Source of the DNA: Candidatus Nomurabacteria bacterium | Lineage (GTDB): Bacteria > Patescibacteriota > Minisyncoccia > Phycocordibacterales > UBA9973 | Direction: 5' to 3' | Length of the DNA stretch: 64,000 nt | NCBI GenBank assembly: GCA_943359485.1 | Contig: CALRHR010000002.1 | Span: forward strand, 24,992 to 88,991 | In this document: piece after piece, positions 28,182 through 62,053 of the stretch | How positions within the stretch are numbered: position 1 is the stretch's first letter | Layout of the letters: every line of letters starts with the position of its first letter | Translations under genes and position numbers: made by a program | The notes under the pieces: generated by a model | What the model saw: only the letters and a program-made list of their open reading frames with translations | Databases searched by the model: none | Told to the model about the DNA's origin: nothing

Positions 28182-28226
28182 TCGCCCCCTTGTGAAGGGG
28201 GAGATGTCCGGAGGACAGAGGGGGTA
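28182..28226 (+). repeat. GC-rich palindromic mini-element, family E/F (intergenic atpG-atpD, in frame with atpD)
   Basis: tcgcccccttgtgaagggggagatgtccggaggacagagggggta is near-identical to 51747-51787. Hairpin arms are ccccc/ggggg. Confidence 0.6.
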
Positions 28227-28251
28227 TATTGTAAATTATAAACAAAATTTT

Positions 28252-29616
28252 ATGCAAACAGGAAAAATCAAAAAAATAATAGGCCCAGTCGTAGATGTGG
28301 ATTTTGGTGAAGTATTGCCGGATATTTATTCTGCACTCGAAGTGATGAACCAAATAGGAGGACAGACGAAGAAAATTATTCTCGAAGTTGAACAACACTT
28401 GGGTGGTGGAGTTGTGCGGGCTATTGCCATGGACACAACTGACGGTCTTTCTCGTGGAATGGAAGTTTTAAATACTGGAGCACCCATTTCTGTACCTGTT
28501 GGTAGTGCCACTCTTGGAAGAATTTTTAATGTTTTGGGTGAGGCTATAGATGACGGCAAACCTGTTGCCACAGATAAAAAGTTGCCAATACACCGTAGGG
28601 CTCCAGAATATGTAAAACAAGCCACAAAAGTAGAAATTCTAGAAACCGGAATTAAAGTTATTGATCTTATTTGTCCAGTTTTGAAGGGAGGAAAAGTCGG
28701 ACTTTTCGGAGGTGCTGGTGTGGGTAAAACTGTAGTTATTCAGGAGCTTATACACAACATAGCATCGAACCACGGAGGATATTCCGTCTTTGCAGGGGTA
28801 GGTGAGCGTACCCGTGAAGGGAATGACCTATATCATGAAATGAAGGAGTCGGGTGTGCTTCCAAAAGTCGCGATGGTTTTCGGACAGATGAATGAACCAC
28901 CAGGTGCTCGCTTGCGGGTCGCACTCTCTGGGCTAACGATGGCAGAACATTTCCGTGATGCAGAAGGTAAAGATGTGCTTCTCTTTATTGACAATATTTT
29001 CCGCTTTACTCAAGCTGGTTCTGAGGTGTCGGCATTACTCGGCCGTATTCCGTCAGCAGTGGGTTATCAGCCGACACTTGGAACAGAAATGGGTATGATG
29101 CAAGAGCGTATCACTTCTACTGATAAAGGCTCGGTGACTTCAGTGCAAGCCGTTTATGTGCCAGCAGATGACTTGACTGACCCAGCACCAGCGACGACAT
29201 TTGCGCATCTTGATTCTACTGTCGTGCTTAATCGTTCACTTTCTGAAATTGGAATTTACCCGGCTGTTGATCCACTCGACTCATCTTCAACGATTCTTGA
29301 TCCAAATATTGTTGGACAAGAACACTACAATGTTTCTCGCGAGGTTCAGCGTGTACTTCAGCGCTACAAAGATTTGCAAGACATCATAGCTATCTTGGGT
29401 ATGGAAGAACTTTCAGAGGCTGACAAAGAATTAGTATCTCGTGCTCGAAAAGTTCAAAAATTTCTTTCTCAGCCATTCTTTGTGGCAGAACAATTTACGG
29501 GGACTAAGGGTCAGTATGTTCCTCTCGCAGAGACAATCCGTTCATTCAAAGAAATTCTGGAAGGCAAACATGACGATAAATCAGAAGGAGATTTTTATAT
29601 GCGAGGTGCGCTATAA
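28252..29616 (+). CDS. atpD: F0F1 ATP synthase subunit beta
   Basis: [16 protein letters not shown]-loop GGAGVGKTV, and DELSEAD-type LSEADKEL. The start was placed at ATG 28252 (MQTGKI). The track ORF starts at 28174 and would read through the GC-rich element as [26 protein letters not shown]. Confidence 0.92.
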
Positions 29617-59065: not shown

Positions 59066-59128
59066 AGATTAAAAGTTGAACCTAGCTCTGTGATGGTAAA
59101 ATACTATGAATTAGTATAATATACCTAT

Positions 59129-62053
59129 ATGATTTCTCGTATTTATGTGGTGCCTAAATCTGGAGCAACTAGGGCGGATTCTTATTTGCTTGACTCAAAA
59201 TTATCCAAAAAAGAGATCAAGAAACTGGCTGAGGCACTCGCCAATCCAATACTAGAAAACTACTATATAGATGAATCCCCAACAGTGGGGAATTTTTCTT
59301 TTGCGATCGAAATAGGTTTTAAGCCAGGGGTAACGGACAATGTTGGGAACACCGTGAAAGAAATTGCCAAAGATTTACTGCGCACAAAAAATAATTCTGA
59401 ATTTCAGGTTTACACTTCAAAAATTTTCTTCGTCTCCGGTTCAAAAAAAGATGCGGAGGAATTTGCCAGTTCGCTATATAACCCACTGATTGAGCGCGCC
59501 ACAGTTGTGTCAGTAAAAAATGGAACAATAAATTTCCCCACCCAAATGCCAAAAGTAATTCTCAAAAAAAGAAAGTCTGTGATAAATGTTTCCCTGAATG
59601 TTCCCAATGAAGAACTGATAAGAATAGGCAAAGAGGGGGTAATGGATCCAGATGGTACAAGAAGGGGTCCTTTGGCACTTGATTTATCGAGTATGCAGGT
59701 GATTCGTGATTATTTTAAAAAATTAAAGAGGAGCCCAACAGATATCGAGCTCGAATCTTTAGCACAAACATGGTCTGAACACTGCAAACACACGATTTTT
59801 GCAAATCCAATTGACGATATCAAAGATGGTTTGTATAAAACTTACATCAAAGGCGCGACAAATTTAATCCGCAAGCAAAAAAGCCAGAGAGGTCAGCAGG
59901 ATTTTTGTGTTTCTGTTTTCAGTGATAATTCCGGTGGAATAATTTTTGAAAAAGATTATTTAATCACGCATAAAGTAGAAACTCATAATAGTCCTTCCGC
60001 GCTCGACCCATTTGGTGGGGCCATCACCGGCATCGTAGGAGTGAATCGGGACACTATCGGCTTTGGATTAGGTGCTAAGCCCGTAGCAAATACTTATGGA
60101 TTTTGTTTTGGGTATCCAGAAGATAAAAGAAAATTATTCAAAAATAAAGACAAGAATGGCAACCCAACAAACCTCATGCTACCTCCGAGTAGAATCATGG
60201 ATGGAGTAATTAAGGGCATCAATGCTGGCGGAAACTGTTCCGGAATTCCGACTCTCAATGGATTTGTAAAATATGACGACAGGTATCGAGGTAAACCTCT
60301 GGTCTTCGCTGGAACTGTGGGGTTGATTCCACGAAAGTTGGGGACAAAATTTTTACACGAAAAAAAAGCCCGAGTTGGGGACTATATAGTGGTAGTTGGC
60401 GGAAAAGTTGGCCTCGACGGAGTGCATGGCGCTACATTTTCATCAGTGGCACTTGATTCAAATTCTCCAGCAACCGCAGTGCAGATAGGTGATCCGATTA
60501 CACAAAAAAAATTAAGTGACGCAATAGTAAAAGAAGCACGCGACATGAATTTATACCACAGCATCACCGACAACGGTGCAGGAGGAATTTCCTGTTCAGT
60601 AGCCGAAATGGCCAAGGAGTGTGGAGGAGCTGAAGTAAATCTTGAAAAAGTTCCGCTTAAATATCTTGGTCTGCGTCCTTGGGAAATTTGGATTTCAGAG
60701 TCCCAAGAGCGCATGACGCTTGCTGTACCTCCAAAAAAGTGGAAAAAATTTAAAGCGTTACTAGAGAGCCGTGGAGTTGAAGCGATGGCAATCGGGGAAT
60801 TTACGAATTCCAGAAAATGCGTAGTAAATTACAACGGCAAAAAAATAATGGATATGGATATGGAATTTCTACATAATGGATTACCAAAACAGCACTTACA
60901 AACAGAAAAAATTATACCCCCTCCTTTCTCCTCCCCCTACAGTAGGGGGAGGTTGGGTAGGGGTAATGATTACACCAAAACTTTGGAAACTCTACTTGGA
61001 AATATTAATTTAAGTGGATTTTCATTTATTTCACAACAATACGATCATGAAGTGCAAGGCTCTTCTGTGCTAAAACCTCTTTCCGGAAAGGGGCGTATAA
61101 ATACGGATGCGCAAATTTTTAAACCAGTTTTAAATTCAAACAAAGGAGTTGTCTTATCATCTGCGCTGTATCCTTCATATGGTGATATCAGCACTTACGA
61201 TATGGCTGCTTGCGCGCTCGACACTGCTGTCCGAAATACGATAGCTTGTGGCGGTAAATTGTCGCACTTGGCAATTTTAGATAATTTTTGCTGGTGCTCT
61301 TCTCACGACCCAAAACGGCTAGCGCAACTCGTGGATTCTGTAAAAGCTTGTTATGACTACGCGGTCGGCTACGGTACACCTTTTATCTCTGGTAAGGATA
61401 GCATGTTTAATGATTTTAAAGGTTATGACGAGAAAGGAAATCCTATCGCGATCTCTATTCCACCGACACTTCTGATATCTTCCATTGGAGTAATGCCCGA
61501 CATTTACAAAACTGTTTCGCCAGAATTTAAAAATAGTGGAGATATAATTTATTTACTCGGAGAGACAAAAGACGAACTTGGTGGTAGTAAATATTTAAAA
61601 ATGCTTACCCGCCGTAGCCTTGGCGAAGGCCGGGTCCCACAAGTTGATATTCAGAAGAATTTGAAAACTTACAAAGCTCTAGAGCAAGTTATAGAGCAGG
61701 AATTGGTAGCTTCGGCACTTTCTGTGACTTCGGGAGGTCTTGCAATAGCGCTCGCCAAAGCTTGCATAGGTGGAATGCTCGGCGCTAAAATTAGTGCGAC
61801 AAGCATACTGGAAGAATCAACCTCCTCTGAGGTAAAACTTTTTTCCGAAAGCCAGGGAAGAATTTTAGTATCTGTCTCGCCCAAAAATGTAAAAGAATTT
61901 GAAAAAATGATGAAAGGAGTTCCTTGTGCGAAGCTAGGAAAAGTTTCCAAAGGTAAAGAAGTAGTAGTTACTGATGGGAAGAATAAAATAATCAACACAA
62001 CCGTTAAAAATTTATACAAAATTTACCATAGATTTTCTAATTCTCAAAAATGA
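59129..62053 (+). CDS. purL: Phosphoribosylformylglycinamidine synthase (PurL, with N-terminal PurS-like domain)
   Basis: AIR-synthase-related duplicated domains (WSEHCKH, HNSPSALDPFGGAITG, DNGAGG). 974 aa. It contains a GC-rich in-frame insert (PPPFSSPYSRGRLGRGN). Confidence 0.88.
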   Translation: MISRIYVVPKSGATRADSYLLDSKLSKKEIKKLAEALANPILENYYIDESPTVGNFSFAIEIGFKPGVTDNVGNTVKEIAKDLLRTKNNSEFQVYTSKIFFVSGSKKDAEEFASSLYNPLIERATVVSVKNGTINFPTQMPKVILKKRKSVINVSLNVPNEELIRIGKEGVMDPDGTRRGPLALDLSSMQVIRDYFKKLKRSPTDIELESLAQTWSEHCKHTIFANPIDDIKDGLYKTYIKGATNLIRKQKSQRGQQDFCVSVFSDNSGGIIFEKDYLITHKVETHNSPSALDPFGGAITGIVGVNRDTIGFGLGAKPVANTYGFCFGYPEDKRKLFKNKDKNGNPTNLMLPPSRIMDGVIKGINAGGNCSGIPTLNGFVKYDDRYRGKPLVFAGTVGLIPRKLGTKFLHEKKARVGDYIVVVGGKVGLDGVHGATFSSVALDSNSPATAVQIGDPITQKKLSDAIVKEARDMNLYHSITDNGAGGISCSVAEMAKECGGAEVNLEKVPLKYLGLRPWEIWISESQERMTLAVPPKKWKKFKALLESRGVEAMAIGEFTNSRKCVVNYNGKKIMDMDMEFLHNGLPKQHLQTEKIIPPPFSSPYSRGRLGRGNDYTKTLETLLGNINLSGFSFISQQYDHEVQGSSVLKPLSGKGRINTDAQIFKPVLNSNKGVVLSSALYPSYGDISTYDMAACALDTAVRNTIACGGKLSHLAILDNFCWCSSHDPKRLAQLVDSVKACYDYAVGYGTPFISGKDSMFNDFKGYDEKGNPIAISIPPTLLISSIGVMPDIYKTVSPEFKNSGDIIYLLGETKDELGGSKYLKMLTRRSLGEGRVPQVDIQKNLKTYKALEQVIEQELVASALSVTSGGLAIALAKACIGGMLGAKISATSILEESTSSEVKLFSESQGRILVSVSPKNVKEFEKMMKGVPCAKLGKVSKGKEVVVTDGKNKIINTTVKNLYKIYHRFSNSQK
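60916..60966 (+). repeat. GC-rich palindromic mini-element, family C/D, inserted in frame in purL
   Basis: accccctcctttctcctccccctacagtagggggaggttgggtaggggta, with stem ctccccc/gggggag. Confidence 0.65.

Follow-up and report, generated by a model that had tools for sequence, protein, structure and literature searches.

Small GC-rich dispersed repeats, probably related to BoxC/PIT, in spacers and in frame in housekeeping genes of a Candidatus Nomurabacteria genome

The stretch of DNA analysed here, a 64-kb window of a Candidatus Nomurabacteria genome on which all statements about this genome are based, carries over a dozen small GC-rich repeats, corresponding to about one per 4-5 kb, and about half of the copies sit in frame within housekeeping genes. 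We put the probability at roughly three in four that these blocks belong to several families of small, dispersed and non-autonomous repeats, with BoxC/PIT as the main one, that copies are retained where they cause no harm, and that those in frame are translated together with the host gene. Comparison of orthologues revealed gains, losses and exchanges of copies at particular sites in the course of evolution, and the same element types were found to be read in different frames and to occur in non-coding spacers as well.

Repeat families and their copies in the window

In the following, A-F and dus2 denote elements of the window, L-numbers DNA loci of other genomes or contigs, and P-numbers orthologue proteins. 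The copies are located as follows:

A: 30912..30977, plus strand, BoxC/PIT-type nested hairpin in frame in rsmI, peptide FDLSPSPSPNLGEGGRRPGEVN; its second loop holds a GGCC-GAA-GGCC mini-hairpin
B: 35194..35253, unstranded, BoxC/PIT-type nested hairpin that fills the Peptidase_M50-Peptidase_M24 spacer
C: 52725..52774, plus strand, BoxC/PIT-type nested hairpin in frame in dnaX, peptide HPTLRPPLVKGRVGEGS
D: 60914..60967, plus strand, nested hairpin in frame in purL, peptide IPPPFSSPYSRGRLGRGN, mostly replacing a variable interdomain linker
E: 28181..28226, unstranded, atpG-atpD spacer, C5T/AG5 hairpin with mini-hairpin and mirror AG5 block
F: 51746..51788, plus strand, same family as E, in frame in dus past GNPFLF, peptide APCEGGDAKGRGG
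dus2: 51860..51913, plus strand, two nested G-family elements in frame in dus; outer element 51860-51868 + 51899-51913, inner 30-nt insert 51869-51898
PurL G-family copy: 61607..61635, plus strand, ACCCGCCGTAGCCTTGGCGAAGGCCGGGT, in frame in purL, peptide TRRSLGEGR
MiaA block: 41400..41467, minus strand, GC-rich, in frame in miaA, about 16-20 extra residues (RSGRSGSEKPSGSMRPS)
rpmE element: 13908..14045, unstranded, 138-nt hairpin with perfect 16-bp terminal inverted repeats that fills the rpmE-prfA spacer
FBA element: 7827..7860, plus strand, twin CCGCC/GGCGG hairpin in frame in the gene of class II fructose-bisphosphate aldolase (FBA), peptide ISALGGSAFG
TopA insert: 45984..46016, minus strand, in frame in topA, SAPAVAKAEA, between zinc-ribbon repeats; GC 0.67 versus 0.40 for the gene
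PurA insert: 58922..58951, plus strand, in frame in purA, PTRLNSRSGE; GC 0.67 versus 0.40 for the gene
tRNA-Ile element: 16436..16474, unstranded, GC-rich nested hairpin in a spacer, about 40 nt upstream of tRNA-Ile

All nine GC-rich blocks proposed in a first-pass annotation of this DNA were found where it had placed them, and a search for further copies added those in the aldolase gene, in topA and purA, at the second purL site and in the tRNA-Ile spacer, all of which it had missed. Similarity between blocks was scored as the local-alignment score against 500 dinucleotide shuffles and expressed as z. By this measure, the three related pairs that had been suggested are similar beyond what composition would give (A/B z=15.3, E/F z=19.4, C/D z=6.3), and the similarity between B and C (z=4.2) joins A-D in one superfamily. 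A third family, designated G, with the core CCGCCG(A/T)AGCCTTGGCG, comprises the copy at 61607 in purL and both parts of dus2, which is in fact two nested elements. The purL copy is oriented opposite to the dus copies, matches the inner element of dus2 on the other strand in 17/18 nt (94%) and stands where orthologues have G-x-x-G-N-N. The remaining blocks also have counterparts elsewhere: the MiaA block shares 21 identical nt with an insert in Dus of L027, the PurA insert resembles an RPTERSFGR insert in Dus of L005, and copies similar to the FBA element were found in L070, L018 and L038. The GC-rich core of the rpmE element (approximately 13951-14027), which forms the centre of the 138-nt hairpin, aligns over 26 nt at 88% identity with a family of long inserts in Dus of L012, and B shares 31 identical nt with a copy within Dus of L005.

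Folding supports the palindromic nature of most, and not all, of these copies. A folding energy of <= -30 kcal/mol is reached by 15 sixty-nt segments of the window, against 0 after block shuffling, and six perfect GC-rich inverted repeats, four of them with 10-bp arms, compare with 1.3 +/- 1.05 expected. Fold z-scores amount to -4.5 for A, -3.7 for B, -4.55 for C, -3.5 for D, -2.4 for F and -2.8 (as RNA) for dus2, whereas E reaches -1.2 as RNA and -3.3 as DNA; the whole 138-nt rpmE hairpin (-4.6), the FBA element (-4.0) and the tRNA-Ile spacer element (-3.1) behave similarly. Hairpin potential had initially been ascribed to all nine blocks, which holds for A-D, E/F and dus2 and fails for the MiaA block (z -0.6) and for the rpmE core taken alone (z -0.1). 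Among the additional copies, the TopA (-0.6), PurA (-0.8, weak) and PurL 61607 (-0.4) inserts are not significant against shuffles, and the G family as such was not significant as a hairpin in the fold tests. No Rfam family was matched at the gathering threshold, and permissive E-values yielded only generic miRNA and snoRNA hairpin models far below the thresholds. A special freedom of the elements from stop codons in all six frames was considered and rejected: four to five frames are open, no more than in shuffles of the same composition, and the excess of open frames over the genomic background is due to GC richness alone.

The internal build of the copies connects them to a described repeat. 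BoxC corresponds to PIT and to 'TM-ECO', a potential intrastrand-triplex motif of E. coli, other Enterobacteria and cyanobacteria, with the pattern CCCTCNCCC-N3-6-GGGNGAGGG-N3-GGGNGAGGG (Holder et al. 2015, PMC4666352). Each of A-D has a perfect 10-bp inner stem with a loop of 3-5 nt, E and F have stems of 6-7 bp, and the mirror purine blocks agree at 7/8 (A), 8/9 (B), 8/8 (C), 7/9 (D), 8/8 (E) and 8/8 (F). The second loop measures 3-4 nt in C and D and 7-12 nt in A, B, E and F, being expanded by a mini-hairpin in A, E and F. Under the strict TM-ECO pattern there were 0 hits, both in the window and across 1.34 Mb from relatives; a loosened version (<=1 substitution per block, loops of 3-7 and 2-8 nt) retrieved A, B and 15 copies in L005, L018, L060 and L384-L386. 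Judged from sequence, A-D and, by architecture, E/F belong to the BoxC/PIT/TM class, defined by a C-rich stem, its G-rich complement and a mirrored second purine block, an arrangement with the potential for C-G-G triads. Within it, A-F would be relatives or variants of BoxC/PIT and not exact members, each forming a full nested palindrome. The link to E. coli was established through the published sequence, and a BLAST search with element B against E. coli genomes (28 Gb) was uninformative, as matches this short do not clear the E-value limit.

Six blocks (A, C, D, F, dus2 and the MiaA block) lie in uninterrupted open reading frames (ORFs), in agreement with the first-pass annotation; one junction-spanning peptide predicted from such ORFs, as an example, is ...KERFDLSPSPSPNLGEGGRRPGEVNVIPIPGP.... 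In MiaA, the block lies between the P-loop helix and the GEIISADS motif; in PurL, D gives a net gain of only about 4-6 residues in place of the 15-21 stated in that annotation, the linker being mostly replaced. Likewise, the claim that the other copies fill spacers precisely from stop to start codon stands for B, whose first bases form the TGA stop codon of the M50 gene, and for the rpmE element, which carries the rpmE stop codon in its left arm and ends 6 nt before the prfA start. It does not stand for E, which begins 4 nt past the atpG stop codon and ends 25 nt short of the atpD start. A candidate insert was additionally observed at 10365-10420 in a gene for an FAD-linked oxidase, where two adjacent GC-rich hairpins, GGCCC-CAAA-GGGCC and GATCCC..GGGATC, lie in frame with the peptide VGPKGPKIPRVFEGS.

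Site occupancy, conservation and distribution

To compare filled and empty sites, 120 RsmI and 120 Dus orthologues were aligned, DNA around Dus was taken from 80 related genomes, and spacers and RsmI were examined in the syntenic loci L384, L385 and L386; RsmI loci obtained by a metagenome scan were, among the matches listed, mostly distant relatives, with 9 close ones. In RsmI, the site lies between KIKEKF and EVxVIPIPG. Empty forms read, for example, KFKDEV, or KFSSDEV in L304, and the site is also empty in L305 and many other orthologues, while an A/B-type form (NLTPSPLSLSRRGVGGEV) is present in about 30/120 orthologues, a C-type form (NPTLRPPLTGEGWGEV) occurs in other genomes, and several unrelated hairpins are found at the same position. 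These states are scattered over a weakly resolved neighbour-joining tree of the host protein (120 orthologues).

In Dus, orthologue lengths range from 300 to 357 residues, with private inserts at >10 positions in addition to a hotspot past GNP(W/F)LF, most of them GC-rich hairpins at the DNA level. Element F occupies this hotspot, which coincides with the linker joining the barrel and the helical domains; the site is empty in L389 and carries an E/F-type element in L387, L388 and L390. At the dus2 site, L387 and L390 are empty and L389 has the outer 24-nt element only (NPLRQGFGGSG). Relative to L389, the window contains exactly 30 nt more, of the same family and at the centre of the outer element, which makes this the cleanest single event. 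Two further insert families were observed at these hotspots. In L007, L012, L017, L032, L061 and L079, the Dus hotspot holds a longer, less GC-rich family (peptide ...KHENFLLKIFSVRRRHSSQGF...) with a conserved multi-hairpin fold, the core of which, CTCGSGCCGTCGC...AAGGCTTT, resembles the core of the rpmE-prfA element of the window. Another hairpin family, TGTCAAAGAC..GTCTTTGACA, with peptides like CQRRSLTSNVSKTVFD, is common to the RsmI and Dus hotspots, with members in L307:1195-1899 (RsmI, tandem pair) and in Dus of L008, P0005, P0006, P0031, P0065 and P0113.

Spacers vary in the same manner. The M50/M24 spacer, occupied by B in the window, holds an element in L385 and L386 and none in L384; in the atpG-atpD spacer, where the window has E, L385 and L386 show AT-rich sequence with no element and L384 a different long hairpin; and the rpmE-prfA spacer of L385 has 21 nt, compared with the 138-nt element of the window. 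The atpG-atpD hairpin of L384 (L384:6095-6222) spans about 80 nt, within about 100 nt of spacer, and combines AT-rich outer arms with a GC-rich centre at -43 kcal/mol. On their 5' side the sites are flanked by T-rich and on their 3' side by A-rich sequence, a bias that the genomic background shows as well.

Several inserts of the window are private, namely those in DnaX (1/72 orthologues), dus2 (1/77), MiaA (1/12), PurA (1/8) and TopA, although L005 and L009 have other GC-rich inserts at the TopA site, and D is shared by P0271 alone among 60 aligned PurL orthologues. A census of 13 orthologue clusters gave 142 private inserts, 31% of which exceed the GC content of the host gene by >0.15. Often, however, relatives have a related GC-rich element in the same position. 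As far as the compared orthologues indicate, the sites are recurrently or anciently occupied and not private to this genome.

What is kept at these sites appears to be the nucleotide sequence. Among L384-L386, the element in RsmI shows 93-96% identity, with all differences in the loop, against 52-60% at third positions of conserved flanking codons; for the Dus hotspot, 81-88% in the element compares with 48-58% at third codon positions. In the E/F mini-hairpin, changes are compensatory, giving the pairs TCC/GGA, GCC/GGC, GCCC/GGGC, GGCC/GGCC and TCCC/GGGA. The mini-hairpin variant of rsmI in the window is the one found in the M50 spacer of L385, whereas the M50 spacer of the window has the other, which implies that variants are not tied to sites. 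In L385, three copies (atpG in frame, RsmI and M50 spacer) have one loop sequence, the atpG copy matching the RsmI copy at 96% in reverse complement, and in L386 one copy provides the last residues of atpB together with its stop codon. The same cores were also detected at unlinked loci of other Paceibacteria in both orientations. In 1.35 Mb, 22 hairpins with homopyrimidine arms were counted, versus 0 in the control, and these are confined to 10/84 loci. On sequence evidence, the constraint is on the nucleic acid and not on the peptide, and the pattern probably points to turnover, homogenisation or constraint of the nucleotide sequence, whatever peptide it encodes.

The families also extend beyond Patescibacteria (Candidate Phyla Radiation, CPR). 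Plasmids from cyanobacteria, rhizobia, Azospirillum and Vitreoscilla carry copies related to A/B, and cas10d of Stanieria contains an in-frame copy approximately 87% identical to B. The inner A/B hairpin, CCCTCTCC-N7-GGAGAGGG, was found in viral contigs which, among the matches listed, range in GC from 0.29 to 0.73, many with an outer CCTCACCCC box. The G-family core CCGCCGWAGCCTTGGCG is present in 101 viral contigs (GC 0.38-0.70) with a shared consensus. For E/F, the exact core was absent from the viral contigs searched, and a relaxed pattern returned mostly generic C5T/AG5 hairpins, with about 5/128 showing the full E/F build. We also observed five near-identical BoxC-type copies in one orientation in the Mu-like phage head module of L088, an IMG/VR contig of 7.3 kb with a GC of 0.45. 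Two of the five lie in frame, one in the linker between the N- and C-domains of the terminase and one in a Mu-F-like protein, which suggests that phages may carry repeats between hosts. Taken together, matches in cyanobacterial plasmids, proteobacteria and phage contigs show that the families are not specific to CPR.

At the protein level, AlphaFold models built with orthologue alignments (mean pLDDT, the predicted local distance difference test score, 71 for RsmI and 74 for Dus) place the inserts in low-confidence coil, in line with the loop positions first proposed. The RsmI insert is predicted as coil between helix 98-109 and strand 130-135 (pLDDT<50 at residues 113-127), and the Dus inserts as coil at 237-257 and 277-299 (pLDDT<50 at 244-255 for F and 279-299 for dus2), the first of them at the junction of the barrel with the C-terminal helices. 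Alignment with solved structures gives a 10-residue gap at the FBA insert (7nc7) and a gap exactly at the MiaA insert (2qgn). Positions at interdomain linkers recur in RsmI, Dus, PurL and the phage terminase (N/C domains). The models thereby support a tolerance of inserts in loops and linkers, and where the first-pass annotation spoke of loop targeting, the data fit tolerance plus hotspots equally well.

The window has a GC content of 37.6% and is only moderately AT-rich, not strongly so as had been stated, and its closest protein matches are Candidatus Nomurabacteria / Paceibacterota, in keeping with the CPR-like genome that had been supposed. Its gene content is that of ordinary housekeeping, with nearly all genes on the plus strand and four tRNAs, and includes the ATP synthase operon, rsmI, mreB, holB, frr, the M50 protease gene, map, ddl, alr, miaA, aroA, parB, relA/spoT, topA, dprA, serS, dus, dnaX, purA and purL. 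Three further features were seen alongside. A perfect AT-rich palindrome, the two 17-bp arms of which (CAAGGCAAGACCTTGTA / TACAAGGTCTTGCCTTG) are each palindromic themselves, spans 50132-50171, covering the end of the serS ORF and extending into the spacer that follows; a 60-nt segment at this place folds at -30 kcal/mol, and the palindrome could be a terminator or another repeat family. The region 16596-20006 on the minus strand encodes a 1137-residue protein with beta-helix, peptidoglycan-binding and dockerin domains that probably acts at the surface or in adhesion, and its gene contains GC-rich tandem repeats with 24-30-nt periods at 17013-17229 that are read on the strand opposite to the gene. 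At 36025-38445, a fused double D-Ala-D-Ala ligase of 807 residues gives two Ddl N-terminal and two C-terminal domain matches, and L385 is alike.

Competing explanations

The families, about 30-66 bp long with one of 138 bp, would represent non-autonomous GC-rich DNA comparable to repetitive extragenic palindromic (REP) sequences. The surviving copies would be the harmless ones, found at two kinds of place: in operon spacers, where copies can even provide stop codons, and in interdomain linkers or surface loops of housekeeping proteins, if their length is a multiple of three and contains no stop codon. In the latter case the ribosome would read through the copy, adding a disordered stretch rich in Pro/Ser/Leu followed by Gly/Glu/Arg, or replacing native residues with it. 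The most likely routes of spread would be copying from other genomic copies, by gene conversion or template switching at stable non-B DNA that would stall replication, or the action of a putative trans-acting enzyme.

Several observations weigh against this reading as dispersed repeats. At PurL, atpG (L385) and RsmI, the elements replace native residues, which simple insertion would not predict, and no consistent target-site duplication emerged when occupied and empty versions of the RsmI, M50-spacer and Dus sites were compared. No terminal signature was found on the elements, and the 52/57 window ORFs scanned against Pfam (RsmI, Dus, PurL, FBA and MiaA were identified by other means) include no transposase, integrase or reverse transcriptase. 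The blocks in MiaA, TopA and PurA and the G-family copy in PurL form no significant hairpin, and 'palindromic' is thus not a term that suits all of them. That the inserts are translated is deduced from their intact frames. Finally, near-identity at one orthologous site in spite of near-saturated synonymous sites could mean purifying selection for a function instead of selfish turnover.

Of the alternatives, a classical route as a MITE (miniature transposable element with inverted repeats) or through a REP-associated tyrosine transposase (RAYT) survives best, with a RAYT or an IS200/IS605-type Y1 enzyme as the candidate, and we nevertheless consider it unlikely. It would account for multi-copy hairpin families with a patchy lineage distribution, for the nested insertion into the centre of a like element in dus2 and for the perfect 16-bp terminal inverted repeats of the rpmE element, and REPs within ORFs are documented in other phyla (PMC3733652). 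However, the GTAG/CGTC tag of REPs is missing from both ends of A-F, GTAG being present only in the loop of D, and no recognisable target-site duplication is seen at comparable filled and empty sites. No RAYT (Y1 transposase) was found among the scanned ORFs in these 64 kb of genome, nor have mobility genes ever been found beside E. coli copies of TM-ECO (PMC4666352). Moreover, both orientations occur on one replichore, unlike what strand-biased Y1 transposition would give, albeit in a very small sample.

Selection for a function is, in our assessment, quite unlikely as the explanation, although the marked conservation of sequence speaks for it. Under this alternative, the elements would be functional cis-acting nucleic-acid structures, either mRNA-stabilising or pausing hairpins at operon junctions and domain boundaries (co-translational folding), or DNA that steers replication or recombination. 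The element sequence is far better kept than neighbouring synonymous sites, stems are kept while loops vary, with compensatory changes in the E/F mini-hairpin, and positions recur at interdomain linkers (RsmI, Dus, PurL and the N/C linker of the phage terminase) as well as directly past stop codons. Yet many close orthologues have no element at the site, unrelated families occupy one site, both orientations relative to transcription are found, and E. coli BoxC/PIT showed no effect on promoters, terminators or expression in earlier work (PMC4666352). In addition, the stems keep their sequence, and not merely their pairing, across phyla, which a purely structural constraint would not predict.

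A broader proposal would count the BoxC-type and companion families among ultra-small mobile DNAs shared by bacteria at large and phages, which would spread with no element-specific enzyme, perhaps by template switching or gene conversion set off by their own non-B structure or by uptake of foreign DNA, and which in CPR bacteria would preferentially land in and be kept at interdomain linkers of essential proteins under nucleotide-level selection. We regard it as speculative and rather improbable. If it were true, the hairpin itself would have a role, for instance as a translational pause or a recombination signal, and the small gene set of CPR bacteria would make the host machinery identifiable. 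A gene for DprA (47962-48822) adjoins topA, and competence is a conceivable entry route for short foreign DNA.

That the blocks are ordinary ancestral variable loops whose GC content follows from peptides rich in Pro, Gly, Arg and Ala can be excluded: the sites are indeed variable linkers in all relatives, some element states are widespread (about 30/120 RsmI orthologues), and the length of PurL is hardly altered, but the same nucleotides recur in non-coding spacers (B, E), on the opposite strand, in other frames and in unrelated genes and phyla, the complementary and mirror symmetry has no rationale at the peptide level, and all three codon positions are kept where flanking third positions are saturated. 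An assembly or binning artefact from chimeric or contaminant GC-rich reads, which the evidently metagenome-assembled source and the resemblance to sequences of other phyla might suggest, is excluded outright, as genomes that were assembled independently, in different studies and from different sources, have the same elements in orthologous positions, the reading frame is always preserved, and variants are lineage-specific.

Significance and comparison with known systems

CPR genomes are seen as extremely streamlined, yet this one carries a repeat about every 4-5 kb, several of them in the essential genes rsmI, dus, dnaX, purL, miaA, topA, purA and fba. The BoxC/PIT family, known since the 1990s and still unexplained, would thereby reach a new phylum with a new behaviour, in-frame read-through, and the same short sequences are common to CPR bacteria, cyanobacteria, proteobacteria and phages. 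For BoxC-type repeats no mechanism of movement has been described, and a lineage of about 600-1000 genes with clear turnover is a good place to look for one. In practical terms, alignments of patescibacterial proteins, and the family models and marker-gene phylogenies of this group, are inflated and distorted by the inserts, while the hotspots of length variation are useful for strain typing and represent a ready source of new disordered loops. In-frame palindromic repeats are already known from Rickettsia, and REPs inside genes have likewise been reported (PMC3733652). No relevant report of palindromic or REP-like elements in CPR, Patescibacteria or Parcubacteria was found in the searchable literature. 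What appears to be new is the presence of these families in CPR genomes, their common in-frame placement in essential genes, and the recurrence at hotspots together with sequence-level sharing with cyanobacteria and phages.

The GC clusters of yeast mitochondrial DNA and the double-hairpin elements of fungal mitochondria are likewise short GC-rich palindromic mobile elements of AT-rich compact genomes, located in spacers and occasionally in frame in genes, and to our knowledge no mechanism of their mobility has been described. As organellar elements unrelated in sequence, they offer an analogy only.

Rickettsia palindromic elements (RPE), reportedly described by Ogata and colleagues in 2000, measure about 100-150 bp. 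The first-pass annotation had likened the blocks to RPE, and in behaviour this likeness persists: dispersed palindromic repeats lie in spacers and in frame in intact, probably functional ORFs of a reduced-genome host, with the added peptide at the protein surface or in a loop, which in the present case is predicted by AlphaFold. In size they differ: the elements described here are 30-66 bp long, with only the rpmE element (138 nt) in the RPE size range. Their families also cross phyla, whereas those of RPE are not known outside Rickettsia, and the known family closest to them is BoxC/PIT/TM-ECO. RPE are also mentioned by Di Nocera et al. 2013 (PMC3733652).

REPs are short GC-rich stem-loops located mostly downstream of ORFs, some of which provide a stop codon and some of which lie inside ORFs of known proteins (PMC3733652; for REPs and REPINs see also Bertels and Rainey 2011, PMC3116915). 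The elements of the window resemble them as short, GC-rich, multi-copy stem-loops that sometimes give a stop codon or fall within ORFs, and differ from a simple REP in their nested and mirror-repeat build.

The SDR (small dispersed repeats) known from cyanobacteria, together with their tandem heptamers (Elhai et al. 2008, as cited in PMC3116915), were compared by description only. They share with our elements a very small size, hairpins in some cases and tandem heptamers nearby; the A/B family itself is shared with cyanobacteria, and the window has heptamer arrays in its spacers as well. These arrays, for example (TAGGCAC)n and (TAAAGCC)n, at 29617-29680, 32715-32778, 1725-1755, 57598-57628 and 24211-24275, reach the start codons of atpC, holB, obg and purA and recall the short tandem heptamer repeats of cyanobacteria; the 73-nt stretches 29625-29697 and 32723-32795 are 92% identical.

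The closest comparison is with BoxC/TM-ECO, for which 3610 copies in 262 genomes have been reported, with related motifs abundant in cyanobacteria and 23 copies in strain MG1655 that are 'always' intergenic; triplex formation was observed in vitro, and the copies are tied to locally rearranged regions with no mobility gene nearby (PMC4666352, the text of which cites earlier BoxC/PIT work by Bergler, Bachellier and Hoyne/Maher). Differences from the elements studied here are that these require one substitution per block to be matched, that their stems end in T/A, that the second loop may measure 7-13 nt and hold a mini-hairpin, and that an additional C-rich block turns the whole element into a nested palindrome. 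Their host is a CPR genome of 37.6% GC and, unlike the intergenic copies of MG1655, A, C, D and F lie in ORFs, as do copies of relatives in atpG, RsmI and Dus. The two nevertheless share the order of C-rich stem, loop, complementary G-rich stem, short second loop and mirrored G-rich block, and both are multi-copy, with conserved stems, variable loops, a patchy occurrence in close relatives, local genome variability and no associated mobility gene. The restriction to 10/84 loci resembles the contrast between E. coli and Salmonella published for TM-ECO (PMC4666352). Down to the level of the variants, CCCTCTCC...GGAGAGGG-CCG-GGGTGAGG in L018 and L386 matches BoxC type B of E. coli, and the TT(G/A) second loops match type A.

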